From Acidimicrobiales bacterium (lineage in GTDB: Bacteria; Actinomycetota; Acidimicrobiia; Acidimicrobiales; CADCSY01), in assembly GCA_035540955.1 (NCBI GenBank), contig DATLFP010000066.1, forward strand, positions 3,055 to 67,054: DNA of 64,000 nucleotides. Reading direction: 5' to 3'. The notes beneath the pieces are model-generated. The model was given only the letters and a program-made list of their open reading frames with translations, did no database searches and was not told where the DNA came from. The translations under genes were made by a program, and so were the position numbers. How positions within the stretch are numbered: the first letter of the stretch is position 1; each line of letters starts with the position of its first letter. Below are positions 2,572 to 59,480 of the stretch, in pieces.

Positions 2572-3372
2572 TCAGTTGAGCCGGGCCCGGAAACGCTCGG
2601 CGGCGGCCGCCGCCGCCACCGACCCGGATCCGCCCGCCGCCGCGTACCGGTCGAGGACCTCGGCCGCCTCCCGGAACCGGCCGCCGGCGGCCAGCGCCGT
2701 GGCGTGACGCTGGTGGTCGGCGAGGACGGCGCCGGGCATCGCCGCCCGCAGGGAGACCGCCCGCAGGAGCAGTTCCCGGTCGGAGCGGATGCCGGCCACC
2801 GACTCCAGGTTGGCGAGCATCCGCACGAGGATCGCCCGCTTCCCCACGGGCTCGAGGAAGGCGTCGTCGAAGACGGCGCCCGGCCCGTGCACGGCATGGA
2901 ACCGAGCCGCGCACCCACCGCGATCGAGCACCTGCCCGCGCGCGAAGGGATCGATGTACACCCCGGGGTCGACCTTGTCGCGCACGAGGAAGTGACCCGG
3001 CATCGACACGCCGGCCAGGGGGATGCCGACCCGGCGGCCGACCTCGAGCATCAGGACGGCGAGGGTGATCGGGATCCCGACCCGGCGCTCGATCACCTCG
3101 TCGAGCCAGGAGTTGGCGGGGTCGTGGTAGTCCTCGGCGTTCCCGGCGAAGCCGAGGTCGCGGAACAGGAGCGCTCGCAGACCGTCGAGCGTCGGTGCCG
3201 GCACCTCGGCGGCGAGCGCGTCGAGTGCCGCCAACCCCGCCTCCACCTCGCCGGTGCCCCGAGTCGCCGCCGCCAGGACGAGCGCGGCTTCGTCGAGCGG
3301 GATGGCCAGCTCGGGCCCTCCCGCGAGCGCCGCGAACCGCTCGACTGCCTCCACCCGCTGCACGGTACCCAC
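2572..3372 (-). CDS. transglutaminase-like / SirB1-family protein with C-terminal TPR-like region
   Basis: DYHDPANSWLDEVIERRVGIPITLAVLMLEVGRRVGIPLAGVSMPGHFLVR is the characteristic SirB1/UPF0162 transglutaminase-like core. GTG start at 3372; an alternative GTG is at 3353. Confidence 0.7.
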   Translation of the reverse strand: MGTVQRVEAVERFAALAGGPELAIPLDEAALVLAAATRGTGEVEAGLAALDALAAEVPAPTLDGLRALLFRDLGFAGNAEDYHDPANSWLDEVIERRVGIPITLAVLMLEVGRRVGIPLAGVSMPGHFLVRDKVDPGVYIDPFARGQVLDRGGCAARFHAVHGPGAVFDDAFLEPVGKRAILVRMLANLESVAGIRSDRELLLRAVSLRAAMPGAVLADHQRHATALAAGGRFREAAEVLDRYAAAGGSGSVAAAAAAERFRARLN

Positions 3373-3395
3373 GTCGGCGACTGGGAGGTCAGCCC

Positions 3396-4967
3396 ATGGT
3401 TGTCGGTACGGTTCGGGCCATGTACCCCGGCGTCCACGCGCAGACCACCCCGGACAAGCCCGCCTACATCATGGCGGGCACCGGTGAGGCCGTGACCTAT
3501 CGCGAGCTCGACGAGCGCTCCAACCGCCTCGCCCACCTCCTCCGGGAGGCCGGCCTGCAGCGCGGTGACTCGATCGCCCTCATGCTCGAGAACCATCCTC
3601 GCTACTTCGAGATCCTGTGGGCCGCGCAGCGGGCTGGCCTCTACTACACGGCGATCTCGTCGCGCCTGACCCCGGGCGAGACGTCCTACATCATCAACGA
3701 CTGCGGGGCGAAGGTCTTCATCACCTCCGCCTACAAGCGGGACGTCGCCGAGATGGTCGCCGTCGACACACCCGAGGTCACGGTCCGCTTGATGCTCGAT
3801 GGCACGACCACCGGCCACGACTCCTACGAGGACGCCGTCGCCAAGTACCCCGCCACGCCGATCGCCGACGAGTCAGAGGGCACCGACATGCTCTACAGCT
3901 CGGGCACGACGGGCCGGCCGAAGGGCGTACGGGTACCGCTTCCCGAAGGCGCGATGGGCCAGCCCAGCGGCGTCACGCTCGTCGGCCAGATGCTCTACGG
4001 CTTCAACGACAGCATGGTGTACCTGTCGCCGGCGCCGCTGTACCACGCCGCGCCCCTTCGCTTCACGATGGCGGTGCACCGCGTCGGCGGCACCGCGATC
4101 GTGATGGAGCACTTCGACCCCGTCGAGTTCCTCCGCCTCATCGAGACGCACAAGGTCACGCACACCCAGGTGGTGCCGACGATGTTCGTGCGCATGCTCA
4201 AGCTGCCCGAGGCCCAGCGCACGCAGTTCGACGTCTCGAGCCTGCAGATCGCCATCCACGCCGCCGCGCCCTGCCCGATCCCGGTCAAGGAGCAGATGAT
4301 CGCCTGGTGGGGACCGGTGATCATGGAGTACTACGCCGGCACCGAGGGGAACGGGTTCTGCGCCATCACCTCCGAGGAGTGGCTGCAGCACAAGGGGTCG
4401 GTGGGCAAACCGCTGATGGGCGTGGTCCACATCGTCGGCGAGGACGGCGAGGAGGTCGCCACCCGCGAAGAGGGCACCATCTACTTCGAGAGCGGCTCGA
4501 CCTTCGAGTACCACAACGACCCCGAGAAGACGGCCCAGTCGCGCGACCCGAAGGGAAGGGGCTGGAGCACGCTCGGCGACGTGGGCTACGTCGACGAGGA
4601 CGGCTACCTCTACCTCACCGATCGCAAGGCGTACATGATCATCTCCGGAGGGGTGAACATCTATCCGCAGGAGGCCGAGAACCTCCTCACCACCCACCCG
4701 AAGGTGCTCGACGTGGCCGTCATCGGCGTGCCCAACGAGGACTTCGGCGAGGAGGTGAAGGCGGTCGTGCAGCTCGTCGACGGCGTGGAGCCCAGCCCCG
4801 ACCTCGAGCGGGAGCTGATCCAGTTCTGCCGCGACGAGCTGGCCGACGTGAAGTGTCCCCGCTCTGTCGACTTCACCGATGAGCTCCCCCGCCACCCGAC
4901 CGGGAAGCTCTACAAGCGGCTCCTCCGGGACAAGTACTGGGAAGGGCATCAATCACGGCTCGTGTAG
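3396..4967 (+). CDS. acyl-CoA synthetase (AMP-forming, FadD-like)
   Basis: AMP-binding motifs LYSSGTTGRPKG, YYAGTEG, GDVGYVDEDGYLYLTDRK and HPTGKLYKR. ATG 3396 is preceded by GGGAGG at 3383-3388. An alternative ATG at 3420 would give MYPGVH.... Confidence 0.9.
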   Translation: MVVGTVRAMYPGVHAQTTPDKPAYIMAGTGEAVTYRELDERSNRLAHLLREAGLQRGDSIALMLENHPRYFEILWAAQRAGLYYTAISSRLTPGETSYIINDCGAKVFITSAYKRDVAEMVAVDTPEVTVRLMLDGTTTGHDSYEDAVAKYPATPIADESEGTDMLYSSGTTGRPKGVRVPLPEGAMGQPSGVTLVGQMLYGFNDSMVYLSPAPLYHAAPLRFTMAVHRVGGTAIVMEHFDPVEFLRLIETHKVTHTQVVPTMFVRMLKLPEAQRTQFDVSSLQIAIHAAAPCPIPVKEQMIAWWGPVIMEYYAGTEGNGFCAITSEEWLQHKGSVGKPLMGVVHIVGEDGEEVATREEGTIYFESGSTFEYHNDPEKTAQSRDPKGRGWSTLGDVGYVDEDGYLYLTDRKAYMIISGGVNIYPQEAENLLTTHPKVLDVAVIGVPNEDFGEEVKAVVQLVDGVEPSPDLERELIQFCRDELADVKCPRSVDFTDELPRHPTGKLYKRLLRDKYWEGHQSRLV

Positions 4968-5303: not shown

Positions 5304-6059
5304 GTGCCCGCCTCGGAGTGGACCTTCCTCGACCATCCCGGCGTGCTGGCCTTCTCCCACCGGGGCGGCGCCGGCGACTGGCCGGAGAACACGATGCGGG
5401 CGTTCGAGCAGGCGGTCGAGCTCGGCTACCGCTACGTCGAGACCGACGTGCACCTCACCGCCGACGGCGAGCTCCTCGCGTTCCACGACGACGTGCTCGA
5501 CCGCGTCACCGACCGCCACGGGGTGATCGCCGACCTGCCGTGGACGGTCGTGCAGGAAGCGCGAGTGGGCGGGACCGAACCCATCCCCCGGCTCGAGGAG
5601 CTGCTCGTCACCTGGCCCGATCTCCGGGTCAACATCGACCCGAAGCACGATGCGTCCGTCGCCCCCCTGGCCGCGGTGATCCGCCGCACCGGCGCCACCG
5701 ACCGCGTCTGCGTCGGCTCCTTCAGCGACGAGCGGCTGGAGCGGATCCGCGAGCTGCTCCCCGGCGTGTGCACCTCCCTGGGTCCGCTCGGGATCCTGCA
5801 CCTCGGCCAGGCCGCGCAGGGTGAGGCGGTGGGCCCCCTGCCGGCGCCCTGCGCCCAGGTCCCCACGCACTTCGGCGACATCGAGGTGGTCACGCCGGCG
5901 TTCGTCGACGAAGCCCACCGACGGGGGATGCAGGTCCACGTGTGGACCATCGACGAGCCCGAGGAGATGGCTCGCCTCGTGGATCTCGGCGTCGACGGGA
6001 TCATGACGGACCGGAACGCGGTGCTGAAGGACGTGCTCGTGGCCCGCGGGCGCTGGTAG
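5304..6059 (+). CDS. glycerophosphodiester phosphodiesterase family protein
   Basis: FSHRGGAGDWPENTMRAFEQAVELGYRYVETDVHLTADGELLAFHDDVLDRVTD is the GDPD catalytic HR...E.D.H block; C-terminal VHVWTIDEPEEM...GVDGIMTD. GTG at 5304. Confidence 0.85.
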   Translation: MPASEWTFLDHPGVLAFSHRGGAGDWPENTMRAFEQAVELGYRYVETDVHLTADGELLAFHDDVLDRVTDRHGVIADLPWTVVQEARVGGTEPIPRLEELLVTWPDLRVNIDPKHDASVAPLAAVIRRTGATDRVCVGSFSDERLERIRELLPGVCTSLGPLGILHLGQAAQGEAVGPLPAPCAQVPTHFGDIEVVTPAFVDEAHRRGMQVHVWTIDEPEEMARLVDLGVDGIMTDRNAVLKDVLVARGRW

Positions 6060-6064
6060 CCGCG

Positions 6065-7564
6065 GTGGAGCTCCCGCTCACCCCTCTCGACCTGCTTGCC
6101 CGGGCCCGCCGCCTGTTCCCCGAGCGAGTCGGCGTGATCGACGGGGATCAGGAGTGGACCTACGCCGAGTACGGGGCCCGCTGCGACCGGCTCGCCCACG
6201 CCATCCGCAGCCTCGGTGTGGCGCCCGGTGACCGGGTGGCGTGGCTGTGCGGCAACACCCACGAGCTGCTGGAGGCCTACTACGGCGTGCTGCTGGCGGG
6301 TGCCGTGCTGCTGCCCCTCAACATCCGGCTCGCGGCGCCCGAGCTTCGCTTCTGCATCGACGACGCCGGGGCCGCGCTCCTGTTCTGCCACCCCGACCAG
6401 CTCGATCTGGGTGACGCCGGGATCCCGGTGGTGACCCTGGGCGACGAGCACGAGGCGCTGCTCGCCGCGCAACCACCGGAGGTGTTCGTCCCGCCCCCGA
6501 TCGAGGAGTCCTCACCGGCGGAGCTCTTCTACACGAGCGGCACCACGGGCGACCCCAAGGGCGTCGTCCTCACCCATCGCAACCTCTACCTCCACGCGAT
6601 CCACTCTGCCCTCACGAACGCGCTCACCGGCGAGGACGTGATCCTGCACACCATCCCGCTCTTCCACGTCAACGGTTGGGGCACCCCGCACTACGTGACC
6701 GGGCTCGGGGGCCAGCACGTCCTCCTCCCCCGCTTCGAGGCCGCCGAGGTGCTTCGTCTCGTCGAGACGCACCGCGTCACGCGGTTGTTCCTCGTGCCGA
6801 CCATGCTGCAGTCCCTGCTCACCCATCCAGCCTTCGACGCCACCGACCTGTCGAGCGTGCGGCAGATCTCCGTCGGTGGGGCGCCGGCTCCGCCGTCGCT
6901 GCTGGCCGAGGCCGAGGAGCGCTTCGGCTGCGAGGTCATCTGCGGCTACGGGATGACCGAGTCGGCGCCCACCCTCACGCGGTCGCTCGACAAGCCCGGG
7001 GAGCCGCGGTCGCGGGCACGGCGGGCGACGACCGGGCTCCCCATCCTCGGGGTCGACGCCCGGGTCCTCGACCGCGACGACGCCGAGGTGCCCTGGGACG
7101 GCGCCACGCCCGGCGAGATCTGCGCCCGGTCCAACCACGTCATGCAGGGCTACTGGAACCGGCCGGAGGAGACCGCGGCGGCGCTCCGGGGCGGGTGGCT
7201 GCGCACGGGCGACATCGCCGTCGTCGATCCCGACGGCTACCTGACGATCGTCGACCGCCGCAAGGACGTGATCGTCTCGGGCGGCGAGAACGTGTCGTCG
7301 GTCCAGGTCGAGAACGTCCTCGCCGAGCATCCCGCCGTGCTCGAGGTGGCGGTCGTCGGCATGCCGGACGAGCGCTGGGGCGAGGTGCCTCGGGCATGGG
7401 TCGCCCTCCGGCCCGGCGCCTCCGCCACCGAGGGGGAGCTCATCGCCTGGGTGCGCGCCCGCCTCGCCCACTTCAAGGCGCCGAAGGAGGTCGTGTTCCT
7501 CGACGAGCTCCCCAAGGGCGGCACCGGCAAGATCCTCAAGCACGACCTCCGCACCCGCCCGTAG
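6065..7564 (+). CDS. AMP-dependent synthetase/ligase (fatty-acid-CoA ligase-like)
   Basis: Motifs FYTSGTTGDPKGV, GYGMTE, LRTGDIAVVDPDGYLTIVDRRKDVIVSGGENV and PKGGTGKILK. GTG at 6065, 6 nt after the upstream stop. Confidence 0.85.
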   Translation: MELPLTPLDLLARARRLFPERVGVIDGDQEWTYAEYGARCDRLAHAIRSLGVAPGDRVAWLCGNTHELLEAYYGVLLAGAVLLPLNIRLAAPELRFCIDDAGAALLFCHPDQLDLGDAGIPVVTLGDEHEALLAAQPPEVFVPPPIEESSPAELFYTSGTTGDPKGVVLTHRNLYLHAIHSALTNALTGEDVILHTIPLFHVNGWGTPHYVTGLGGQHVLLPRFEAAEVLRLVETHRVTRLFLVPTMLQSLLTHPAFDATDLSSVRQISVGGAPAPPSLLAEAEERFGCEVICGYGMTESAPTLTRSLDKPGEPRSRARRATTGLPILGVDARVLDRDDAEVPWDGATPGEICARSNHVMQGYWNRPEETAAALRGGWLRTGDIAVVDPDGYLTIVDRRKDVIVSGGENVSSVQVENVLAEHPAVLEVAVVGMPDERWGEVPRAWVALRPGASATEGELIAWVRARLAHFKAPKEVVFLDELPKGGTGKILKHDLRTRP

Positions 7565-7582
7565 CGGACACGCTCCCCGAGC

Positions 7583-8860
7583 TCAGGGAAGGAGGACGTT
7601 CGGGTTCAGGATCGCCTGGGGATCGAGGGCGCGCTTCACCGCCCGGAAGGCGGCGATCTCCGCCTCCGACCGGTCGAGGTGCAGGAGCCGCTTCTTCGCC
7701 GTGCCGATGCCGTGCTCGGCGCTGATGCTCCCGCCCGACGCCACCACCAGGCGCAGGACGGCCTCGTCGACCGAGTCGTCCTCTTCCGCCGGTCCCACGA
7801 CGTTGACGTGGACGTTGCCGTCGCCCACGTGGCCGAAGAGGAACACGCGGTGGTCGCCGACCACCGTGCGGACCTCGTCGCAGAACGGGGCCAGCCGCGC
7901 CGCCGGCAGCGTGACGTCGAGCTTGTGCGGGACGCCGAGCGCGCTGATCGCCTCGGTGATCGACTCCCGGTAGCGCCAGAGCTCCCTTCGCCGGGTCTCG
8001 TCCGTGGCCACGGCGGCGTCGCCGGCGTCGACGGCGCCGAGCGCGTCGGGCGCGCCCGACCACTCGAGGAGCAGGTAGCACGCCGCGTCCGGCACCGGCG
8101 CCGGCAGGTCGAGCCACAGCTCGGCCGCCTCGAGGACGACGTGACGGCGCATGATCGCCACCGCCTCGACGGCGGCTGCCACCGACCCCCGCCCGAGCAC
8201 CGCCGTGACGAGGTCGCGGGGCCGAGGCACGAGCCGGAGCCGAGCGGCGGTCACCACGCCGAGCGTGCCCTCCGAGCCGCACAGGAGGGCCGACAGGTCA
8301 TAGCCCGTGTTGTCCTTCGTGAGCCCCGAGAGGCGGCGCACCACCGACCCGTCGGCGAGGACGGCTTCGACGCCGACGACGTTGGCCCGCATCGAGCCGT
8401 AGCGGATGTGGTGCAGGCCGCCGGCGTTGGTGGCGATCATCCCGCCGACGGTCGCCGAGTCGCGCGACGACAGGTCGACGGGGAACAGGAGATCGGCGGC
8501 CCTCGCCGCGTCCTGCACCGCCGCGAGCGTGGCGCCGGCGCCGGCCGTGACCTGCGCGGCGAGATCGTCGACCGCCTCGATCCCCGCGAGGCGCCGTAGC
8601 GAGAGCACGATCTCCCCGGCGAGCGGGACCCCACCCCCCACCAGCCCGGTGTTCCCGCCCTGGGGGACGACGGCGGCGCCCGCCTCGGCGCAGCACCGCA
8701 CGACCGCCGCCACCTCCTCGGTCGATGCCGGCCGGACCACCGCCGGCGTCCGCCCGCGGAAGCGCCCGGTCCAGTCGACCTCGTAGCCGGCCCGCAGGTC
8801 GGCGTCGACGAGGACGTTGTGCTCGCCGACGATCGACCGGAGCGCGTCGAGGTCGATCAC
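7583..8860 (-). CDS. FAD-linked oxidase (GlcD / D-lactate dehydrogenase-like)
   Basis: N-terminal FAD_binding_4-type block PAVVRPASTEEVAAVVRCCAEAGAAVVPQGGNTGLVGGGVP and C-terminal SAEHGIGTAKK. 425 aa. Confidence 0.85.
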   Translation of the reverse strand: MIDLDALRSIVGEHNVLVDADLRAGYEVDWTGRFRGRTPAVVRPASTEEVAAVVRCCAEAGAAVVPQGGNTGLVGGGVPLAGEIVLSLRRLAGIEAVDDLAAQVTAGAGATLAAVQDAARAADLLFPVDLSSRDSATVGGMIATNAGGLHHIRYGSMRANVVGVEAVLADGSVVRRLSGLTKDNTGYDLSALLCGSEGTLGVVTAARLRLVPRPRDLVTAVLGRGSVAAAVEAVAIMRRHVVLEAAELWLDLPAPVPDAACYLLLEWSGAPDALGAVDAGDAAVATDETRRRELWRYRESITEAISALGVPHKLDVTLPAARLAPFCDEVRTVVGDHRVFLFGHVGDGNVHVNVVGPAEEDDSVDEAVLRLVVASGGSISAEHGIGTAKKRLLHLDRSEAEIAAFRAVKRALDPQAILNPNVLLP

Positions 8861-8867
8861 GACGCGG

Positions 8868-10313
8868 TCACGACACCGGAGGCCGGTTGTCGATCTGGGC
8901 CCGCTGCAGGCGTCCCGAGTAGTCGATGTAGACGGTCTTCGTCTCGCTGAACTGCTCGAGCCCCCGCATCCCCGCCTCCCGATACCCGTTGCCGGTGTGC
9001 TTGGTCCCCCCGAAGGGCAGGTGGATCTCGGCGCCGATGGTCGGTGCGTTCACGTACACGATCCCGGTGTCGATCGCCGCCACCGCCCGCAGCGCCCGGT
9101 TGACGTCGCGGGTGTAGACGGCCGCGCTGAGCCCGAAGGCCGCGCCGTTCACCACGTCGACCGCCTCGTCGAGCGTCGCCGCCTCGATCACCGAGAGGAC
9201 GGGGCCGAACACCTCCTCGCGGGCGATGAAGGCGTCGCCGGCGACACCGGTCAGCACCGTGGGGCGCACGAAGGTGCCGCCCTCGCAGCCGTCGACGTCG
9301 CGGACGACCTCACCCCCGGTCACGACCGTGGCGCCGTCGGCCACCGCCCGCTCCACCATGGCCAGGATGCGATCACCGTCGCCGCTCGTGATGACCGGGC
9401 CGACGTCGGTCGCGGGGTCCGTGGGATCGCCGAGCCGGAGCTGCTCGGCGCGTGTCGAGATCCGCTCGACGAGCTCGCCGGCGACGGCGGGGTGCACGAT
9501 CAGCCGCGACGTGGACGTGCACCGCTGCCCGGCGGTGCCGAACGCTCCGAACAGCGCACCGTCGGCTGCCAGCTCGAGGTCGGCGTCCTCCAGGACGACC
9601 ATCGCGTTCTTGCCGCCGAGCTCCAAGGAGACGAGGCGGGGGCCGGTCTCCATCGCGGCGGCTGCCACCTTGCGGCCGGTCGGGACCGAGCCGGTGAAGG
9701 AGACGGCCCGTACGCCGGGGTGCACGGTGAGCGCCGCCGCCGGTTCGGCGTGCCCGTGCACCACCTGGACGAGCCCCTCCGGGATGCCGCCGTCGAGGCA
9801 GGCGGCGACGAACGCCTCGGCACACGCAGGCGCGTGCTCGGAGGGCTTGAGGACCATGCCGTTGCCGGCGAGCAGCGCCGGGAAGCACTTCCACGAGGGG
9901 ATGGCGACGGGGAAGTTCCACGGCGTGATCATCCCCACGACGCCGACCGGGTGGCGGGTCGTCCACGCCAGCTTGTCGGCCAGCTCCGACGGGTGGACGG
10001 TGCCCCACGCGGCCCGGCCCTGCCCGGCGACGAAGCCGGCCATGTCGATGGCCTCCTGCACGTCGCCCCCCGCTTCGACGAGCACCTTCCCGGCCTCCCG
10101 CGCCACGAGGTCGGCCAGCGTCGCCTTGCGGGCCGCCAGCACCTCACCGACCGCCGCGATGCGCTCGGCCCGCGCCGGAACCGGCACGCTGGCCCACACC
10201 CGCTGTGCGGATGCCGCCGCCTGCACGGCAGCGTCCACGTCGGCCGCCGTCGACGACGGGAACGTCCCCACGACCTCTGCGGGCCGCGCCGGGTTCGTGC
10301 TGTCGAAGCTCAT
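8868..10313 (-). CDS. NAD(P)-dependent aldehyde dehydrogenase
   Basis: Inside the 1146-aa ORF 8868..12308 the real gene starts at ATG 10313 (MSFDSTNPARPAEVVG...). ALDH signatures present: ITPWNFP, SLELGGKNA and FGTAGQRCTSTSR (catalytic Cys), plus EEVFGPV. Confidence 0.9.
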   Translation of the reverse strand: MSFDSTNPARPAEVVGTFPSSTAADVDAAVQAAASAQRVWASVPVPARAERIAAVGEVLAARKATLADLVAREAGKVLVEAGGDVQEAIDMAGFVAGQGRAAWGTVHPSELADKLAWTTRHPVGVVGMITPWNFPVAIPSWKCFPALLAGNGMVLKPSEHAPACAEAFVAACLDGGIPEGLVQVVHGHAEPAAALTVHPGVRAVSFTGSVPTGRKVAAAAMETGPRLVSLELGGKNAMVVLEDADLELAADGALFGAFGTAGQRCTSTSRLIVHPAVAGELVERISTRAEQLRLGDPTDPATDVGPVITSGDGDRILAMVERAVADGATVVTGGEVVRDVDGCEGGTFVRPTVLTGVAGDAFIAREEVFGPVLSVIEAATLDEAVDVVNGAAFGLSAAVYTRDVNRALRAVAAIDTGIVYVNAPTIGAEIHLPFGGTKHTGNGYREAGMRGLEQFSETKTVYIDYSGRLQRAQIDNRPPVS

Positions 10314-15277: not shown

Positions 15278-16471
15278 GTGCCGACGCACGGAGAGGGCCC
15301 GCTGGCGGGCATCAGGGTCCTCGACTTCTCGCGCGTGTACTCCGGCCCCTTCTGCGGGCGGGCGCTGTCGGACCTGGGTGCCGACGTCGTCAAGATCGAG
15401 CCGCCCGATGGCGACCTGAGCCGGTTCCTCGGGGTGCGGTCGGGATCCATGTCGCTGTACCACGCACAGCAGAACGCCGGGAAGCGCAACATCAGCCTCG
15501 ACCTGAACCGCCCCGAGAGCCGCGACCTGCTGCTCCAGCTGGCGGCGACCGCCGACGTGGTGCTCGAGAACTTCCGCCCCGGGGTCATGGCCCGGTTCGG
15601 GCTCGGCTACGACGAGGTCGCCGCGGTCAACCCGCGCCTCGTGTACGCCTCGCTCACCGGCTGGGGCCAGGACGGGCCATGGCGGGACCGCCGCGCCTAC
15701 GCCGTCATCGTGCACGCGGAAGCCGGCCTCACCGCCGGCGTCATCGAGCGGGGCGGCGATCCCCGCAACGACGGCTACTCCCACGCCGACGTGTACGCCG
15801 GCCTGGAGTGCACGATCGCGATCCTCGCCGCCCTCCAGCAGCGATCGCGCACGGGCCGCGGCCAGCACGTCGACGTGGCCATGGCGTCGTCGCTCCTCCA
15901 CGTGAACGAGCACGTGAGCGGCGAGCTCCACGGCGCCGCGCGCGGACCCGGGCCCCACCTCTACCGCACCCGCGATGGTCGGTGGTCGACCACCTCGGCC
16001 GACGTGTGGGCGCCGGGGGTCTTCGAGCTCTTCTGCAAGGCCATGGATCGCGCCGACCTGCTCACCGACGAGCGGTTCGCCGATGAGCGGACCCGGTCCC
16101 GCAACCGCGACGCGCTCGTCGCCATCGTCGAGGCGTGGGTCGGGACCTTCGAGACCGCGGCCGACCTGGAGGCCGCCCTCGACGAGGTGCGCCTGCCGGT
16201 CGGGGTCGTCCGATCGGTGTCGGAGCTGGCCGCCACCGACTGGGCCGTCGAGCGAGAAGCCATCACGGTGGTGAGCGACCGATCGGGTGGCACCATCCAC
16301 ATCCCGTCGTCGCCGTGGCGCTTCTCCGACGCCGACGCCGGCGTCCGCCGCGAGCCGGCGTGGCGAGGTGAGCACAACCGCGAGGTGCTCCTCGAGGCCG
16401 GGTTCACCGACGTCGAGATCGACCGGCTCGAAGCCGACGGCGTGCTCTCCCAACGACCGCCCCGATCGTGA
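15278..16471 (+). CDS. CoA-transferase family III (CaiB/BaiF-like)
   Basis: LAGIRVLDFSRVYSGPFCGRALSDLGADVVKIEPPDGD is the canonical family III N-terminal block. 397 aa, starting 10 nt after adk. Confidence 0.85.
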   Translation: MPTHGEGPLAGIRVLDFSRVYSGPFCGRALSDLGADVVKIEPPDGDLSRFLGVRSGSMSLYHAQQNAGKRNISLDLNRPESRDLLLQLAATADVVLENFRPGVMARFGLGYDEVAAVNPRLVYASLTGWGQDGPWRDRRAYAVIVHAEAGLTAGVIERGGDPRNDGYSHADVYAGLECTIAILAALQQRSRTGRGQHVDVAMASSLLHVNEHVSGELHGAARGPGPHLYRTRDGRWSTTSADVWAPGVFELFCKAMDRADLLTDERFADERTRSRNRDALVAIVEAWVGTFETAADLEAALDEVRLPVGVVRSVSELAATDWAVEREAITVVSDRSGGTIHIPSSPWRFSDADAGVRREPAWRGEHNREVLLEAGFTDVEIDRLEADGVLSQRPPRS

Positions 16472-16525
16472 CCGGCCCCCACGGTGCGGTCGTCGGGCGG
16501 CGGCCCCTCTAACCTGCCCGCAGTC

Positions 16526-17770
16526 ATGCGGCGGACGCTCGGGGCTCCTCTCCTCATTGCCACCTTCCTCGCGTCGCTCGTCGCCGTGCCCGTCCCCGCC
16601 GGGGCGGCGACCACCCCCGCACCCGTCGACGCCCTCGGTTCCGCCGCCGATCGGGGGGCGGCCCAGGTGGCGCCCGGTCACCGAGCGGTCGGGATCGCGC
16701 ACGCCACCGGCACCGGGTACTGGATCCTCACGAGCGACGGCGGCGTGCAGTCCTTCGGCGGCGCACCGTTCTACGGCTCGGCCGCCACGCTCGCCGCCGC
16801 CCCCGCCGTCGCGATCGCCGCCACCCGTGAACGCGACGGCTATTGGGTCGTCACCGTCGATGGTGGCGTCTACTCCTTCGGCGGCGCCCCCTTCCACGGC
16901 TCGCTCGGGGGCACACCGTTGGCGGCGCCCGTCGTGGGCCTCGCGGCCACGCCCACCGACGACGGCTACTGGCTCGCCGCCGCCGACGGCGGCGTCTTCT
17001 CCTTCGGCAGCGCCCGCTACGCCGGTGGTCTGGCCGGCACGCCGCTGGCCGCGCCGATCGTCGGCATCGCCGCCTCCCCCACCGGGGGCTACTGGCTCGT
17101 CGCCTCCGACGGCGGGGTCTTCTCCTTCGGCGGCGCCCGCTTCCACGGCTCGGCCGGCGCCCTGGCCCTGCGAGCGCCGATCACCTCCGTCGCCGCCACC
17201 CCCTCCGGCAGCGGGTACTGGCTGGCGGCGAGTGACGGCGGGGTCTTCACCTACGGCGACGCCATCTTCCACGGAGCCGGCGGCGGCGGCAGCGACCCGG
17301 TCGCCGCCATGGCGTCGCTCGGGAGCTCCGGCTACTGGCTGCTCCGGTCACCGCAGCCGGCGTTCCCGCCCCTCCCGGCCGGTTCCGGCTCGGGCCGGCG
17401 CATCGTGTACAGCAACCCCCAGCAGCGCGTCTGGCTGGTCGAGGCCAACGGCACGGTGATCCGCAGCTACCTCGTCTCCGGCAAGTACCGCACCCCGGCG
17501 GCCGGCACCTACAGCGTGTTCTCCAAGTCGCGGCACACGAGCGCCGGCCACGACGGCATCACCATGAACGACATGGTGCGCTTCGCGCGGGGCTCGCGGC
17601 TGGCGATCGGCTTCCACGGCATCCCCCGTGACCGGTACGGCCGTCCGCTGCAGACCGAGCACGACCTCGGCGGCTTCCGGAGCGCGGGCTGCGTCCGCCA
17701 GTCCGACGGCGATGCTGCCTTCCTGTACGACTGGGCCCCCATCGGCACCACCGTCGTGGTGCTGCACTAG
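16526..17770 (+). CDS. secreted protein: about 5.5 copies of a roughly 42-aa GYWL-DGGVFSFG repeat fused to a C-terminal L,D-transpeptidase (YkuD) domain
   Basis: ATG 16526 gives a signal peptide, MRRTLGAPLLIATFLASLVAVPVPAGAA. Repeats look like VVGLAATPTDDGYWLAAADGGVFSFGSARYAGGLAGTPLAAP. The C-terminus IGFHGIPRDRYGRPLQTEHDLGGFRSAGCVRQ matches the YkuD His...SxGC(I/V)R catalytic motif. Confidence 0.8.
   Translation: MRRTLGAPLLIATFLASLVAVPVPAGAATTPAPVDALGSAADRGAAQVAPGHRAVGIAHATGTGYWILTSDGGVQSFGGAPFYGSAATLAAAPAVAIAATRERDGYWVVTVDGGVYSFGGAPFHGSLGGTPLAAPVVGLAATPTDDGYWLAAADGGVFSFGSARYAGGLAGTPLAAPIVGIAASPTGGYWLVASDGGVFSFGGARFHGSAGALALRAPITSVAATPSGSGYWLAASDGGVFTYGDAIFHGAGGGGSDPVAAMASLGSSGYWLLRSPQPAFPPLPAGSGSGRRIVYSNPQQRVWLVEANGTVIRSYLVSGKYRTPAAGTYSVFSKSRHTSAGHDGITMNDMVRFARGSRLAIGFHGIPRDRYGRPLQTEHDLGGFRSAGCVRQSDGDAAFLYDWAPIGTTVVVLH
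16685..17350 (+). repeat. coding tandem repeat (about 126-nt units, 5-6 copies) encoding putative beta-propeller blades
   Basis: Periodic GYW(L/V/I)xxxDGGV(F/Y/Q)(S/T)(F/Y)G(G/S/D)AxFxG(S/G) in residues about 54-275 of the 16526..17770 product. Confidence 0.7.
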
Positions 17771-17784
17771 CCGAGCACCCGGCG

Positions 17785-18330
17785 TCAGGTCACAGCGTCG
17801 CCGTAGTCGACGCACGCCGGCACCTGCGCGAAGGCCGGGTACCGCTCGGCGAGCGCCTCGCGGGCGGCCTTCGGGTACACGAAGACCTTCTCCATGCGGA
17901 CGAACAGACTGGAGATGCGCGACACCAGCGGCTCGGGGTCCTCGTCGTCGGGGAACGCGTCGGCCAGGGCCACGAGCTCCTGGGTGACGCGACGGCTCTG
18001 GCCGATCGCCTCGACGATCACGGCGGCCGCGGCCCGGCCGTCGCCCGTGGGCGGCGCCACCCGTCGCAGCTGTCGCTCGAGGTCCCAGGTTCGGAGGTCG
18101 ATGGCGCGCGCGAACTGCCGGTAGTGCTCGACGCGGTCCGACGCGCGCTCGATCGGTGTGATCGCTCGGGAGAGCCTCGTCGCCTCGTCCTCGAGGGCGT
18201 CGATCCAGGTCTGGATGGACGCGCACGACGATGCCGCGATCGCGGTCACGGGATCGACTCGACCGCCTCCGCAGCTCACCAAGGTCATCGCCGCGGCCAG
18301 GGCGGCCATCCCGGCAACGGCGCGCCTCAC
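17785..18330 (-). CDS. lipoprotein, unknown function
   Basis: GTG 18330 overlaps the PPK2 stop (GTGA) and gives VRRAVAGMAALAAAMTLVSCGGG with a lipobox LVSC. The mature part is helical and charged (IQTWIDALEDEATRLSRAI...). An alternative ATG is at 18309. Confidence 0.6.
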   Translation of the reverse strand: MRRAVAGMAALAAAMTLVSCGGGRVDPVTAIAASSCASIQTWIDALEDEATRLSRAITPIERASDRVEHYRQFARAIDLRTWDLERQLRRVAPPTGDGRAAAAVIVEAIGQSRRVTQELVALADAFPDDEDPEPLVSRISSLFVRMEKVFVYPKAAREALAERYPAFAQVPACVDYGDAVT

Positions 18331-19133
18331 GGCACCACGAGGCCGGCCACGGCTGGGTCGTCCGGCGGCAGCCGTGGGTCCATCGCTTCGAGGGCGCGCA
18401 CGACGATCTCGGCCACGACCGCGTCCCGCAACCACTTGCGGTCGGCGGGCACGACGTACCACGGCGCCCGCGCCGTGCTCGTGGCGGCGAGTGCCCGTTC
18501 GTAGGCGTTGATGAACTCGGGCCACCGGGCGCGGTCATCGAGATCGCCCACCCGGAACTTCCAGCGCTTCTCGGGATCGTCGAGCCGAGCCTGCAATCGT
18601 GCGCGCTGCTCGTCGGCCGAGATGTGGAGGTAGCACTTGACGATCGTCGTGCCCTCCTCGACCAGCATCCGCTCGAAGTCGTTGATCTGGCGGTAGCGCT
18701 GGCGCGCACGGGATCGGGTGATCGGCCCGCGAACGTGGGCCGCCACGACGTCTTCGTAGTGCGATCGGTTGAAGATCCCGATGTGGCCCCGGCGGGGCAC
18801 GAGGGCGTGGACGCGCCAGAGGTAGTCACGAGCCAGCTCGCTCGAGGTCGGCACCTTGAAGCTGGAGACCTGGAAGGCAGCGGGTGTGATCCCCCGCAGC
18901 ACCTTCCGGATCACGCCATCCTTGCCGCTGGCGTCCATCCCCTGGAGGACCAGCAGGAGCGAACGCCGGCCCTCGGCATAGAGCCGTTGCTGGAGGAGGT
19001 CGATGCGCTCGCTTCGTTCGGCGACGTACGCCTCCGCGTCGGCCTTGACGAGATCGAAGCCGGCGACGGACCGGGTGTCGATCCCCTCAAGGCGCAGCGT
19101 GGCCTTCGGGACCACGACAAGGGCATCGAGCAC
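18327..19133 (-). CDS. ppk2: polyphosphate kinase 2 family protein (single PPK2 domain)
   Basis: LLLVLQGMDASGKDGVIRKV (Walker A), ARDYLWRVHALVPRRGHIGIFNRSHYEDV and ERMLVEEGTTIVKCYLHIS are hallmark PPK2 blocks. Confidence 0.85.
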   Translation of the reverse strand: MLDALVVVPKATLRLEGIDTRSVAGFDLVKADAEAYVAERSERIDLLQQRLYAEGRRSLLLVLQGMDASGKDGVIRKVLRGITPAAFQVSSFKVPTSSELARDYLWRVHALVPRRGHIGIFNRSHYEDVVAAHVRGPITRSRARQRYRQINDFERMLVEEGTTIVKCYLHISADEQRARLQARLDDPEKRWKFRVGDLDDRARWPEFINAYERALAATSTARAPWYVVPADRKWLRDAVVAEIVVRALEAMDPRLPPDDPAVAGLVVP

Positions 19134-19158
19134 GAGCGCTCACGTTACGTTGGCAGCC

Positions 19159-19518
19159 ATGGGGAACGATGCCGAGCTCACCGTGTGGTTCAACGCCAAG
19201 TGCTCGAAGTGCCGGACCACCCAGGGGATCCTGGCGGAGCGCGGCGTCGACGCCGACTACGTGCGCTACCTCGAGCAGGCGCCGACGCGCCAGGACCTCG
19301 AGCGGGTGCTTCTCCTCCTCGGTGCCACGAGCCCTCGCGCCATCGCTCGCACCGGCGAGCCCCGCTGGCACGAGCTCGGCCTCGACGACGCATCCGACGA
19401 CGACATCCTCGAGGCCATGGCCGCCAACCCGATCCTGATCGAGCGCCCGATCGTGATCCGCGGGGATCGTGCCGTCGTCGCCCGTCCCCCCGAGAAGGTC
19501 CTCGACCTGCTCGACTGA
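19159..19518 (+). CDS. ArsC/Spx-family thioredoxin-fold protein (YffB-like)
   Basis: ELTVWFNAKCSKCRTTQGILAERGVDADYVRYLE...NPILIERPIVIRGDRAVVARPPEKVLDLL. ATG 19159 is 25 nt from the divergent ppk2 start. Confidence 0.8.
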   Translation: MGNDAELTVWFNAKCSKCRTTQGILAERGVDADYVRYLEQAPTRQDLERVLLLLGATSPRAIARTGEPRWHELGLDDASDDDILEAMAANPILIERPIVIRGDRAVVARPPEKVLDLLD

Positions 19519-19582
19519 CGGCCGCCTCGTGTGTCGCTCGTCGCACCCGGAACCGACGAGCGCCACCGGTCGTCTCAGTGGC

Positions 19583-20059
19583 GTGACCAGATCCCGCACG
19601 TTCCTGCTCCTGTTCGCCTGCCTCGTCGCCCTGGCGCTGGCCGGCTGCGGGGATGACGACGGCCGGTCGACCAGCCCGACCACGGCCCCCGCACCCGCAT
19701 CCGACACCTTCAGCGGCCGCGTCGTCCGCGCCGATCGGGATGGGCCGTCGGTCGAGATCGTGGAGGTCGAGATCGTGACCGGTGCGGATGCGACCGCCGC
19801 GGCCCGGGCCGATGGTGCCATCGGGCCCGACGAGGAGTGGGAGCTCGACTTCTACGTCGTGGAGGGAGAACGCCGGTGGCTCGACCTCGATCCCGACGCC
19901 TCGGTCGCCGTCTACGACTGCACCCAGGCGTGCGAGCACGTGGCCGGCACCCTCGAGCACGTGCTCGCCGGCTCGCCCTACGCCGGCGAGCATGCGATCT
20001 GGACCTTCGAGCTGCTCGACGGACGAGCCGTGAGCGTCGACGAGGTCTACCTCCCGTAG
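19583..20059 (+). CDS. lipoprotein, unknown function
   Basis: GTG 19583 gives VTRSRTFLLLFACLVALALAGCGDDDG with lipobox LAGC. 158 aa. Confidence 0.6.
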   Translation: MTRSRTFLLLFACLVALALAGCGDDDGRSTSPTTAPAPASDTFSGRVVRADRDGPSVEIVEVEIVTGADATAAARADGAIGPDEEWELDFYVVEGERRWLDLDPDASVAVYDCTQACEHVAGTLEHVLAGSPYAGEHAIWTFELLDGRAVSVDEVYLP

Positions 20060-20069
20060 CCCGCCCGAG

Positions 20070-20684
20070 CTACTGCTCGAGCGCCCGCCAGCAGTACCAG
20101 GCGACGATCGACCGGTACGGGCGGAAGCGCTCACCGAGGGGTTCGAGCTCCTTCGCCGTCGGGACCGCCGGCAGGTCCCACGCCCGCGCGTAGCCGGCGC
20201 GCACGCCGAGGTCGAGCACCGGCCACACGTCGAGCCGCCCGAGCTGGAGCAGCAGGAACATCTGAGCCGTCCACTCCCCGATGCCCCACACCTGCGACAG
20301 CTCTGCCACGATCGCCTCGTCGGTCAGCCGGGATGCCCGCCCCAGCCTGACGCGGCCATCGGCGACGTGGGCGGCGAGGTCGGTGATCGACCGGGTCTTG
20401 GCGCCCGAGAGCCCGGCGGCGCGCAGGTCGCGCGGATCGAGACCGATCACCGCCGGCGGCGTGAACGGTCCCGGGACCAGCGTGCGCACCCGCTGCCAGA
20501 TGGCCGCCGCCGCCCGACCGGCCAGCTGCTGGTAGGTGATCGATCGGCAGAGCGACTCGAAGTGCGACCGCCCAGCCCGCGCGCCGAGCACGCATGGCCC
20601 GGCCGTCTCGATCAGGCCGGCGAGCACCGGGTCCCGGACGGCCAGCGCCCGCTCCGCGTCCCAGATCCTCACGGCCGACATCAC
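20070..20684 (-). CDS. DNA-3-methyladenine glycosylase II-like HhH-GPD protein
   Basis: SITYQQLAGRAAAAIWQRV...LRAAGLSGAKTRSITDLA...LSQVWGIGEWTAQMFLLLQLGRLDVWPVLDLGVR is the AlkA-type HhH-GPD pattern. Confidence 0.8.
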   Translation of the reverse strand: MMSAVRIWDAERALAVRDPVLAGLIETAGPCVLGARAGRSHFESLCRSITYQQLAGRAAAAIWQRVRTLVPGPFTPPAVIGLDPRDLRAAGLSGAKTRSITDLAAHVADGRVRLGRASRLTDEAIVAELSQVWGIGEWTAQMFLLLQLGRLDVWPVLDLGVRAGYARAWDLPAVPTAKELEPLGERFRPYRSIVAWYCWRALEQ

Positions 20685-57446: not shown

Positions 57447-58775
57447 TCAGAGCCAGGCGAGCGGGTTGGTGTGGACGCCGTGGACCCGCACCTCGAAGTG
57501 GAGGTGGTCGCCGGTGGCGAAACCGGTGCGGCCGACGGTGCCGACCGCCTGACCCCGGCTGACCGCCTGGCCGCTGGACACCGCCGGCCGGGCCAGGTGC
57601 GAGTACGACGTGCCGACGCCGTCGCCGTGGTCGATCACCACGGTGATCCCGTAGCCGGGCCGCTCCCGGACCTCGACGACGGTGCCCGCCGCCGCGGCCA
57701 ACGCCGTCGATCCGCCGGCGAAGTCGACGCCGGTGTGCACCTGCGGGCGCCCGTAGACGGGATGGGTCCGGCTGCCGTAGCTCGAGGTGACCCGAGCGCC
57801 GGGAAGCGGGTGGGCGAGGGCCCCCCGGCGAGGGCTGGCGCCGGGCTGGCAGCCCTGGCGGATCCGCAGGAGGGAGGTCAGCTGCGCGCTCTCGCGGGCC
57901 ACGGTGTCGAGCGGATCGCGATCAGGGTGGCTGGCCGCCGGGAGCGGCGTGGTGGCGAGCCAGTACCCGCCGCCGGCGCGGGCGGCGACGCCCAGCACCG
58001 CGTCCTTGCACGCGTTGGCCGCCGAACCCCGGAACGGCGCGCCTCCGAAGGTGTGCACGGCCCCGTCGCGCGTCACCAGCCAGTACGCGGTGCTCGACGC
58101 CGCGTCGATGCCGGTCACCGGCTCGTCGAGGCGCTGGCCGGCGAGCGCCCCGCCGAAGACCGCGGCGCCGAAGGTGTACACGCCGCCGACCGCCGTCGCG
58201 AGCCAGTACCCGTCCCCGGCGGAGGTGGCGGCCATCCCCACCACCGGCGACCCGGGCGCGGAACCGGTGAGGTCACCGGCGTGGCGGGCCGACCCGAAGC
58301 CGAAGACCGACCCACCGGCCGTCACCAGCCAGTAGCCGGCGCCGGCCGGCGCGGCCTCGATGTCGACCACCGGATGGGTCAGCCGCCGATCACCGGTGGA
58401 GCCGAGGAACGGCGCATCGCCGAAGGTGAAGACGCCTCCGTCGGCGGCCGCCAGCCAGTACCCCCTTCCCGACGGGGTCGGCGCCATCGCCACGATCGGC
58501 TGGTTGAGCGGGATCGCCCCGAGCGATCCGCTGTAGCGGGCCCCGCCGAAGGAGAACACGCCACCGTCGGACGCCACCGTCCAGTAGCCCGATCCGTCGG
58601 GACTGGCGGCGACGTCGACGACGGGTGCGTTGAGCGCGACCCCGGCGGTCGACCCGTGGTGGGGCGCGCCGTAGGCGAGGATGTCGCCGCCGGCGACCGC
58701 GGCCGCGGCCGGGTCGCCGCCGAGGAGCGCGGACGTGGCGAGGATGAGGGCGAGGAGCGCCCGCCGGATGCGCAT
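57447..58775 (-). CDS. secreted protein: about 6 copies of the GYWL-DGGVFSFG repeat fused to a C-terminal M23 (LytM-type) metallopeptidase domain
   Basis: ATG 58775 gives a signal peptide, MRIRRALLALILATSALLGG. Repeats look like IVAMAPTPSGRGYWLAAADGGVFTFGDAPFLGSTGDRRLTHP. The M23 motifs are HTGVDF (HxxxD) and GDHLHFEV (HxH). Confidence 0.8.
   Translation of the reverse strand: MRIRRALLALILATSALLGGDPAAAAVAGGDILAYGAPHHGSTAGVALNAPVVDVAASPDGSGYWTVASDGGVFSFGGARYSGSLGAIPLNQPIVAMAPTPSGRGYWLAAADGGVFTFGDAPFLGSTGDRRLTHPVVDIEAAPAGAGYWLVTAGGSVFGFGSARHAGDLTGSAPGSPVVGMAATSAGDGYWLATAVGGVYTFGAAVFGGALAGQRLDEPVTGIDAASSTAYWLVTRDGAVHTFGGAPFRGSAANACKDAVLGVAARAGGGYWLATTPLPAASHPDRDPLDTVARESAQLTSLLRIRQGCQPGASPRRGALAHPLPGARVTSSYGSRTHPVYGRPQVHTGVDFAGGSTALAAAAGTVVEVRERPGYGITVVIDHGDGVGTSYSHLARPAVSSGQAVSRGQAVGTVGRTGFATGDHLHFEVRVHGVHTNPLAWL
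57948..58691 (-). repeat. coding tandem repeat (about 126-nt units, about 6 copies), same repeat family as 16685..17350 but on the opposite strand
   Basis: Periodic (S/A)GxGYW(L/T)xxxxGG(V/S)(F/Y/H)xFGxAxxxG in residues about 29-276 of the 57447..58775 product. Confidence 0.7.
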
Positions 58776-58784
58776 CGGTGCATC

Positions 58785-59480
58785 ATGTCGCAGATGTCTC
58801 CCAACCCGGTCCTCCTCGTCCACGGCTTCGCGTCGTCGTTCCACCTGAACTGGCAGGAGCCCGGGCTCTCCTACCTCCTCGAGGACGCCGGTCGCACCGT
58901 CATCGGCGTCGACCTCCTCGGCCACGGCGAGGCGCCGAAGCCGCACGACCCCGCGGCCTACGCCGACCTCGGCGGTCGCGTCGTCGATGCCCTGCCCGCC
59001 GACGGCAGCCCGGTCGACGCGGTCGGGTTCTCGATGGGCGCTCGCACGCTGGTCGAGGTCGCCTCGGCTCACCCAGAGCGCTTCGGTCGCCTGGTGCTGG
59101 CCGGCGTGGGTGAGAACCTCTTCGCCACGGGCGACAAGGAGCCGCTCGCCCACGCCATCGAGACCGGCGACGGCGGTCCCGGCGGGGTCGCCGCCCTGTT
59201 CGTGAGCTTCGCCAGCGGCTCCGGCAACGACCCGAAGGCCCTTGCCGCCTGCATGCGCCGGCCCGAGCCGCCCATCACCGAGGAGCAGCTGGCCCGCATC
59301 ACGTGCCCGACCCTCGTCGTGCTCGGCGACAAGGACTTCGTCGGGACCGGCGACCGCCTCGTGGCCGCCCTGCCCGACGCGCGGCTGAAGGTCCTCCGCA
59401 ACGTGGAGCACTTCGCGACCCCGAAGGACTTCGGCTTCATCGACGCCACCCTCGAGTTCCTCGGCGCCGTACCGGCGTGA
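58785..59480 (+). CDS. alpha/beta hydrolase
   Basis: Only the last 231 codons of ORF 57471..59480 are protein-like: MSQMSPNPVLLVHGFASS..., nucleophile elbow GFSMGA, and a C-terminal VEHFATP histidine region. Confidence 0.8.
   Translation: MSQMSPNPVLLVHGFASSFHLNWQEPGLSYLLEDAGRTVIGVDLLGHGEAPKPHDPAAYADLGGRVVDALPADGSPVDAVGFSMGARTLVEVASAHPERFGRLVLAGVGENLFATGDKEPLAHAIETGDGGPGGVAALFVSFASGSGNDPKALAACMRRPEPPITEEQLARITCPTLVVLGDKDFVGTGDRLVAALPDARLKVLRNVEHFATPKDFGFIDATLEFLGAVPA

Follow-up and report, generated by a model that had tools for sequence, protein, structure and literature searches.

A secreted M23 peptidase of an Acidimicrobiales bacterium carries a predicted six-bladed beta-propeller from an undescribed, probably wall-binding, repeat family

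The DNA investigated is a stretch of 64,000 nucleotides (the window) from an Acidimicrobiales bacterium (assembly GCA_035540955.1, contig DATLFP010000066.1, positions 3,055 to 67,054), with a G+C content of 70-77%. The gene under study lies at 57447-58775 on the reverse strand and encodes a secreted protein in which an array of repeats of ∼42 amino acids (aa), recognized by the motifs GYWL and DGGVFxFGDA, precedes an M23 peptidase domain. A second gene, 39.7 kb away and on the opposite strand, encodes a secreted protein in which the same repeats precede a YkuD L,D-transpeptidase domain. An earlier interpretation of the window, made from its letters only (the sequence-only reading), had described these two proteins as a domain-swapped pair of peptidoglycan remodelling enzymes. 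The features of both genes are listed below, the repeats being termed blades and located with a hidden Markov model (HMM) of the blade.

57447..58775, reverse strand: propeller-M23 peptidase gene, secreted 442-aa product, ATG at 58775 and stop codon at 57447-57449 (open reading frame and translation)
58698..58775, reverse strand: signal peptide, approximately aa 1-26 (MRIRRALLALILATSALLGGDPAAAA), with a basic n-region, a hydrophobic core and an Ala-rich c-region
57945..58682, reverse strand: six ∼42-aa blades of the GYWL/DGGVFxFGDA repeat, predicted closed six-bladed beta-propeller (blade HMM, E = 1e-17 to 2e-21 per blade; AlphaFold2; Foldseek)
58563-58682, 58437-58562, 58311-58436, 58185-58307, 58062-58184 and 57945-58061, reverse strand: blades 1-6 of the M23 protein, respectively
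57741..57941, reverse strand: linker of ∼65 aa (aa 279-345), helical by prediction at aa 287-308, containing C309 (AlphaFold2, low confidence outside the helix)
57462..57740, reverse strand: Peptidase_M23 (LytM-type) catalytic domain, aa 346-438 (Pfam PF01551, E = 1e-26, 93.4 bits against a cut-off of 28.7)
16484..17770, forward strand: propeller-YkuD L,D-transpeptidase gene, secreted 428-aa product, start possibly at an internal ATG at 16526 (open reading frame)
16622..17356, forward strand: repeat array of the L,D-transpeptidase, with six blades belonging to the family of those in the M23 protein (blade HMM, E = 1e-14 to 2e-21)
17396..17761, forward strand: YkuD catalytic domain, aa 305-426 (Pfam PF03734, E = 1e-15, 59 bits against a cut-off of 23.4)

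There is very little doubt that the M23 protein consists of a signal peptide, a propeller and an M23 domain in that order. Cleavage of the signal peptide would be expected after AAA, and aa 3-14 were modelled by AlphaFold2 as a low-confidence helix. The GYW anchors of the six repeats are located at aa 63, 105, 147, 189, 230 and 270. The Pfam alignment to PF01551 spans profile positions 2-96 of 96, and solved M23 enzymes (NMB0315, ShyA and others) matched the domain at 2e-20 in a search of PDB sequences. The zinc and catalytic residues are intact (H347-TGV-D351, S392-H393-L and H424-L-H426), and this complete HxxxD/His/HxH set points to an active enzyme rather than a degenerate activator of the EnvC/NlpD type. 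The NCBIfam equivalogs ShyA, ShyC, MepM and DipM all scored far below their cut-offs on the M23 protein; hydrolysis of peptide bonds in peptidoglycan, with whichever bond specificity, is a probable activity judged from the domain. The identical 442-aa product was present in public gene calls on four metagenome contigs, including an ENA contig of 88.8 kb on which the M23 gene has identical neighbours.

The L,D-transpeptidase also begins with a signal sequence, and its catalytic H378 and C403 (SAGCVR, corresponding to the SxGC[IV]R motif) are present. Like YkuD of B. subtilis, YcbB of E. coli and LdtMt2 of M. tuberculosis, it combines a YkuD domain with a non-catalytic module, which is N-terminal in this protein; the accessory modules of those enzymes are LysM, PG_binding_1 and Ig-like domains respectively, whereas here the module is the propeller. 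A six-frame HMM scan located exactly 12 blades in the window (E = 1e-14 to 2e-21), all of them in these two genes. The sequence-only reading was therefore correct in identifying a second secreted fusion ∼40 kb distant on the opposite strand, in counting about six repeats in the M23 protein and in assigning the M23/LytM domain from its HTGVD (347-351) and HLH (424-426) motifs.

The repeat region of the M23 protein was modelled by AlphaFold2, from an alignment of 66 sequences, as a six-bladed beta-propeller with a predicted local distance difference test score (pLDDT) of 95.6 and a predicted template modelling score of 0.92. The model contains 18 strands, three for each of six blades, and the strands left over for the sixth blade are one from the N-terminus (ILAY) and two from the C-terminus. 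The ring is predicted to close through these terminal strands, the closure contact resting on strand counting, and the N- and C-terminal half-blades proposed by the sequence-only reading fit this model. In a model of the full-length protein the same propeller was recovered at a pLDDT of 90-98, followed by the linker helix (aa 287-308) and, beyond a stretch of linker of low confidence, by an M23 core modelled with confidence. Foldseek searches against PDB and BFVD returned only beta-propellers (seven-bladed WD40 and RCC1-like) at template modelling (TM) scores of 0.4-0.6, and the top 50 matches were all propellers. No close structural relative of the propeller was found in PDB or BFVD by Foldseek, or by sequence and profile searches of PDB.

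The highest identities among the fold matches were to the RCC1-like domains (RLDs) of HERC2, at 19-20%, and to Pithovirus RCC1 proteins. A profile of the propeller gave marginal matches to PDB sequences, namely the C-terminal domain of GyrA (3NO0, E = 4e-4) and HERC2 RLD1 (E = 3e-3). Single blades were aligned by hhalign to RCC1 blades taken from two family members; DGGVFsFGdA.f.GS was placed over DGsVyaWG.N..GqLG, as the expected register would require, at P = 8e-4 and a probability of 25%. Pfam RCC1 models matched none of the window proteins, and a match to a family member (E = 0.0058) was below threshold. The M23 propeller and the RCC1/BLIP-II superfamily (RCC1, the HERC2 RLDs and BLIP-II of Streptomyces) are alike in forming a propeller with a similar hairpin, DGGVFsFGdAxfxGSxG in the former and DGxVyxWGxNxxGQLG in RCC1; the former has six blades of ∼42 aa, whereas the RCC1 type has seven of ∼50, and the TM-scores between them are 0.46-0.6. 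BLIP-II is itself a secreted actinobacterial propeller with three-stranded blades, and three strands per blade are also seen in the M23 propeller model. Matches between repeat proteins can be induced by structure, with inflated scores (Kopec and Lupas, PMC3797127), and the RCC1 and GyrA profile matches were for this reason taken as marginal, so that homology to the RCC1/BLIP-II superfamily is suggestive only. The C-terminal beta-pinwheel of GyrA/ParC likewise has six repeats of similar length and supplied the best PDB profile match, but it is a cytoplasmic, DNA-binding domain of different strand topology. Sequence matches of this kind among repeat proteins are regarded as structure-induced (PMC3797127), and the fold matches were propellers, not pinwheels.

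The extent of the repeat family was assessed by a full HMMER search of 1.84 billion representatives, in which 18,649 clusters at 50% identity matched the module at E <= 1e-3, of which 8,164 also passed E <= 1e-30. In the species genomes of GTDB more than 590 loci with the module were located, and the best 80 of these were nearly all from metagenome-assembled genomes (MAGs) of Acidimicrobiales, Acidimicrobiaceae or Acidimicrobiia, individual genomes contributing several copies; also among the best 80 was the isolate Acidiferrimicrobium sp. IK. The family is largely restricted to Acidimicrobiia. Typical repeat copies were additionally found under the labels of a Thermoplasmata archaeon MAG (L029) and Candidatus Angelobacter (L084), for which binning contamination is more likely than true transfer. 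Six is the commonest blade number, a few proteins have ∼12 or 17, and the array may be N- or C-terminal.

The repeat has no model in Pfam (2025 copy) or NCBIfam (2026), and no published description of the module came to light in full-text literature searches that combined beta-propellers with peptidoglycan hydrolases, with endolysins or with Acidimicrobiia. The precomputed labels CSD_RNase_II, DUF5818, Ribosomal_L24e, RNR_Alpha and SH3_YKFC_2nd were rejected as real domains, being short sub-threshold matches to the GYWLVASDGGVF hairpin that add up over the repeats. Four family members (P0006, P0015, P0083 and P0090) bear such spurious Pfam labels, which would mislead automatic annotation.

The domains to which the module is fused in cellular proteins were compiled. 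In proteins of ∼400 aa the partners were M23, YkuD, PG_binding_1, CAP, 3D, VanY, NlpC/P60, Amidase_2, CHAP, an Rpf-type transglycosylase domain and S8. Among 125 top representatives the wall-enzyme partners were M23, CHAP and YkuD, and the non-wall partners were TIG, Big, fn3, PKD and cadherin arrays, Calx-beta, NHL, PQQ, FG-GAP and RCC1 propellers, S8, GH99 and peptidase A4. At 67 genome loci the partners comprised TIG (8), pro-kumamolisin (5), YkuD (5), SpoIID (4), Beta-lactamase2 (3), Amidase_3 (2) and PG_binding_1 (2). Overall at least a dozen wall-active partners were encountered (M23, YkuD, NlpC/P60, CHAP, VanY, Amidase_2, Amidase_3, SpoIID, 3D, Rpf-type transglycosylase, PG_binding_1, AMIN-like, Beta-lactamase2 and CAP), the AMIN-like partner having been confirmed as real, together with S8 and S53 proteases, peptidase A4, GH99, arrays of TIG, Big, fn3, PKD and cadherin domains, and other propellers. 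The enrichment for almost all classes of peptidoglycan enzyme is striking, and the partner spectrum is that of general surface-anchoring modules. An S8 subtilase with a C-terminal six-blade propeller is encoded in the cultivated isolate Acidiferrimicrobium sp. IK (NZ_JAIMCB010000008.1, locus L062:1000-3741).

Relatives of the module are also encoded at 73 loci in IMG/VR. The typical viral relative is a protein of 260-390 aa with a catalytic N-terminus and 2-4 blades, mostly three, at the C-terminus; the catalytic domain was Amidase_2 in 42 of the 73, GH25 in two and VanY in one. In the protein at L110:5488-6399, Amidase_2 (aa 20-141) is followed by a Pro/Ala-rich linker and then by three blades. 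Tail fibre, tape measure, major tail, virion structural and endolysin PHROGs were found as neighbours across the six viral loci whose phage context was examined. The C-terminal module of an endolysin directed against Gram-positive bacteria is normally its wall-binding domain, and the blades occupy this targeting slot in the phage endolysins, as a module held in common with host autolysins. The three blades prevailing in the Amidase_2 and GH25 lysins (L110:5488-6399 and most of L090-L157) amount to half a propeller, which suggests that the ring may be completed by dimerization. Among GenBank phages a single distant match (35% identity) was found, with six blades in a 1304-aa tail-region protein of Caudovirales GX15bay that is encoded directly after the minor tail protein; its annotation as GH25 was unconfirmed by Pfam at E <= 1e-3.

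Taken with the intact M23 domain, these data are consistent with an ordinary modular autolysin that carries an undescribed, probably wall-binding, propeller module. The M23 protein would be a Sec-secreted, catalytically competent zinc metallopeptidase of the LytM type, and its most likely role is that of an endopeptidase acting on peptidoglycan as the wall grows or as cells separate. The propeller at its N-terminus probably binds the wall, through peptidoglycan itself or through a polymer specific to the lineage, and would thereby keep the M23 catalytic domain on its substrate, as the choline-binding, SH3b, LysM or SLH modules do in other Gram-positive bacteria, and the L,D-transpeptidase would be a further family member from a separate and old fusion lineage. 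Binding of the propeller to the Acidimicrobiia cell wall is favoured, with some reserve, because the module is common to host autolysins, other surface proteins and phage lysins, as is the pneumococcal choline-binding module. That module (CW_binding_1), found in S. pneumoniae and its phages (LytA, LytB, LytC, CbpD, PspA, Cpl-1 and Pal), is likewise a lineage-specific repeat distributed over autolysins, surface proteins and endolysins, but it is a solenoid of ∼20-aa repeats, whereas the propeller module is a predicted closed six-bladed ring with no sequence kinship to it by Pfam. The design of a catalytic M23 domain with an accessory domain is shared with lysostaphin (M23 and SH3b), ShyA and MepM (LysM and M23), zoocin A (M23 and a target-recognition domain) and LytM, from all of which the protein differs in that its accessory domain is an N-terminal beta-propeller absent from Pfam and NCBIfam.

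A broader proposal is offered more tentatively, at slightly less than even chances. The GYWL/DGGVFxFGDA repeat may define an undescribed class of wall-binding module, the first to be built as a beta-propeller, which would account for a large share of the proteins on the Acidimicrobiia surface, from autolysins and L,D-transpeptidases to proteases and adhesin-like proteins, would recognize a lineage-specific polymer through several equivalent sites, and would have been captured by phages as an oligomerizing half-propeller of three blades.

Several observations weigh against wall binding. The proposal draws on domain architecture and phage context; the partner census was drawn from the top-scoring proteins only and is hence biased, and the IMG/VR contigs are predicted viruses. 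No known wall-binding family (LysM, SH3b, PG_binding_1, SPOR, CW_binding_1/2, SLH or GW) matched the repeat region of either window protein in Pfam or NCBIfam at E <= 1, the lone exception being a sub-threshold match of SH3_YKFC_2nd to the hairpin (E = 0.12) that reflects noise accumulated across the repeats. The genes around the M23 gene, described below, are conserved in its orthologues yet unrelated to the cell wall, and give no functional clue. RCC1-like propellers are the closest likeness in both fold and sequence, and propellers of this type typically bind proteins; BLIP-II, for example, binds beta-lactamases. The propeller of the M23 clade moreover departs from the symmetric consensus of the family in blades 3 to 6 and has a clade-specific pair of cysteines, and it could therefore have a specialized, for example regulatory, role. 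These are the only two cysteines in the clade, C256 in blade 6 (ANACKDAV, window 58008-58010) and C309 at the end of the linker helix (RQGCQPG, window 57849-57851), and both are invariant in 8/8 orthologues, forming a candidate disulfide that would tie the linker to the propeller.

The main rival explanation is accordingly that the propeller is a protein-binding or regulatory module, which docks on a partner such as a penicillin-binding protein or divisome protein, or which holds the M23 site inactive until released. It is kept alive by the RCC1-like resemblance, both in the identities to the HERC2 RLDs and Pithovirus RCC1 proteins and in the HERC2 RLD1 profile match and in-register blade alignment, and by the invariant C256 and C309, through which the linker could be fixed to the propeller; M23 enzymes such as ShyA and LytM are known to be auto-inhibited by accessory domains. 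A single protein partner is, however, hard to square with dozens of unrelated fusion partners and with the C-terminal use of the module in phage Amidase_2 and GH25 lysins, and the RCC1 similarity is marginal, given the sub-threshold Pfam RCC1 match and the inflated scores of repeat proteins (PMC3797127). This alternative is thus considered rather unlikely, and wall binding is preferred. The dedicated make-and-break pair of the sequence-only reading, in which a shared and recently swapped propeller recruits the M23 enzyme and the L,D-transpeptidase to one envelope site or ligand, has in its favour that both proteins are encoded in a single genome and are built alike, a signal peptide leading into six blades and a wall enzyme at the C-terminus, and that both would end up at the wall if the family generally binds there. 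It has as its premise a putative cleavage by the M23 enzyme of the 3-3 cross-links made by the L,D-transpeptidase. The two propellers are 43% identical at the protein level, lower than either is to propellers from other organisms: that of the M23 protein has an identity of 69-77% to the propellers of seven M23 orthologues, and of 48-53% to propellers that in other organisms are fused to CAP or YkuD. The best match shares the fusion partner in 35 of the 47 propellers with known partners. Alignment of the blades of the two proteins, a check suggested with the sequence-only reading, gave identities of 42% among the blades of the M23 protein, 46% among those of the transpeptidase and 45% for blades compared across the two, and between the proteins blades of the same index (44%) were no more alike than those of different index (45%); the blades thus neither pair by position nor separate by protein.

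Because the propellers group by partner and are closer to those of other organisms than to each other, the M23 and YkuD fusions appear to be old, separate lineages with no recent domain swap between them. The genes are, in addition, 40 kb apart in unrelated contexts, and the module is present on thousands of proteins, among them proteins not active on the wall, such as proteases, Ig-like arrays, glycosidases and other propellers, a distribution which the sequence-only reading had itself said would make the pairing coincidental. A dedicated pair is consequently improbable. Of the common recruitment to the envelope there survives the possibility that both enzymes reach the wall via the module, but the same would hold for every member of the family. 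The sequence-only reading had further proposed the two arrays as potential substrates for recombination or for inversion of the 40 kb between them; an exchange of catalytic ends between the two genes would be another conceivable outcome. The arrays are indeed homologous and inverted relative to each other, and from their geometry an in-register exchange would preserve both reading frames. Their DNA identity is, however, 65-70%, with a longest shared exact word of 17 nucleotides (nt) and best inverted arms of 108 nt at 71% and 75 nt at 79%; a 126-bp DNA array was not detected by Tandem Repeats Finder, because the blades have diverged at the DNA level. RecA-type recombination needs longer near-identical stretches and drops steeply with divergence. 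The genes on both sides of the M23 gene are also collinear between the window and the contigs of two orthologues (P0016 and P0078), and recombination between the arrays is regarded as extremely improbable.

In all three contigs, insertions aside, the M23 gene is preceded by genes for a short-chain dehydrogenase/reductase, an acyl-CoA dehydrogenase-like protein, Nfu_N, a nitroreductase and a hydrolase, and followed by genes for a 273-299-aa protein, an RF-1-domain protein, an epimerase and a major facilitator superfamily transporter. As the same order was found on both sides in the orthologue contigs, there is no inversion breakpoint in the M23 gene among these lineages, and no inversion bounded by this gene, for which a check of related assemblies had been suggested, was seen in the two contigs. 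Around the M23 gene the window encodes an alpha/beta hydrolase, a protein of 273 aa that matches nothing in Pfam, the RF-1-domain protein, which we take to be ArfB-like, and the epimerase. The start codons of the M23 gene (reverse strand) and the divergent alpha/beta hydrolase gene (forward strand) are 9 bp apart (window 58775-58785), which leaves two options, promoters located within the adjacent coding sequence or leaderless transcripts. In the P0016 contig (L159) an IS481-family transposase and an ABC transporter gene pair have been inserted in the conserved upstream neighbourhood (2760-3710 and 5689-9218). An AftD-like GT-C glycosyltransferase (1418 aa) and a GT2 enzyme are encoded at 16003-20259 of the same contig, ∼5 kb downstream of the M23 orthologue, and hint at an arabinan-type wall polysaccharide as a candidate ligand of the propeller.

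The M23 gene adds a further modular M23 autolysin to those already known, and the novelty lies in the large, uncatalogued propeller family to which its accessory domain belongs. The module is used by an abundant and poorly cultivated class of soil and freshwater bacteria, and by its phages, in the positions where wall-binding domains sit. If wall binding is correct, it would explain how secreted enzymes are retained on the surface of Acidimicrobiia, and a new fold would be added to the repertoire of wall-binding domains for endolysin engineering. The repeat would also provide a sequence marker linking uncultured phages to Acidimicrobiia hosts, and thousands of proteins now labelled as hypothetical would become annotatable.

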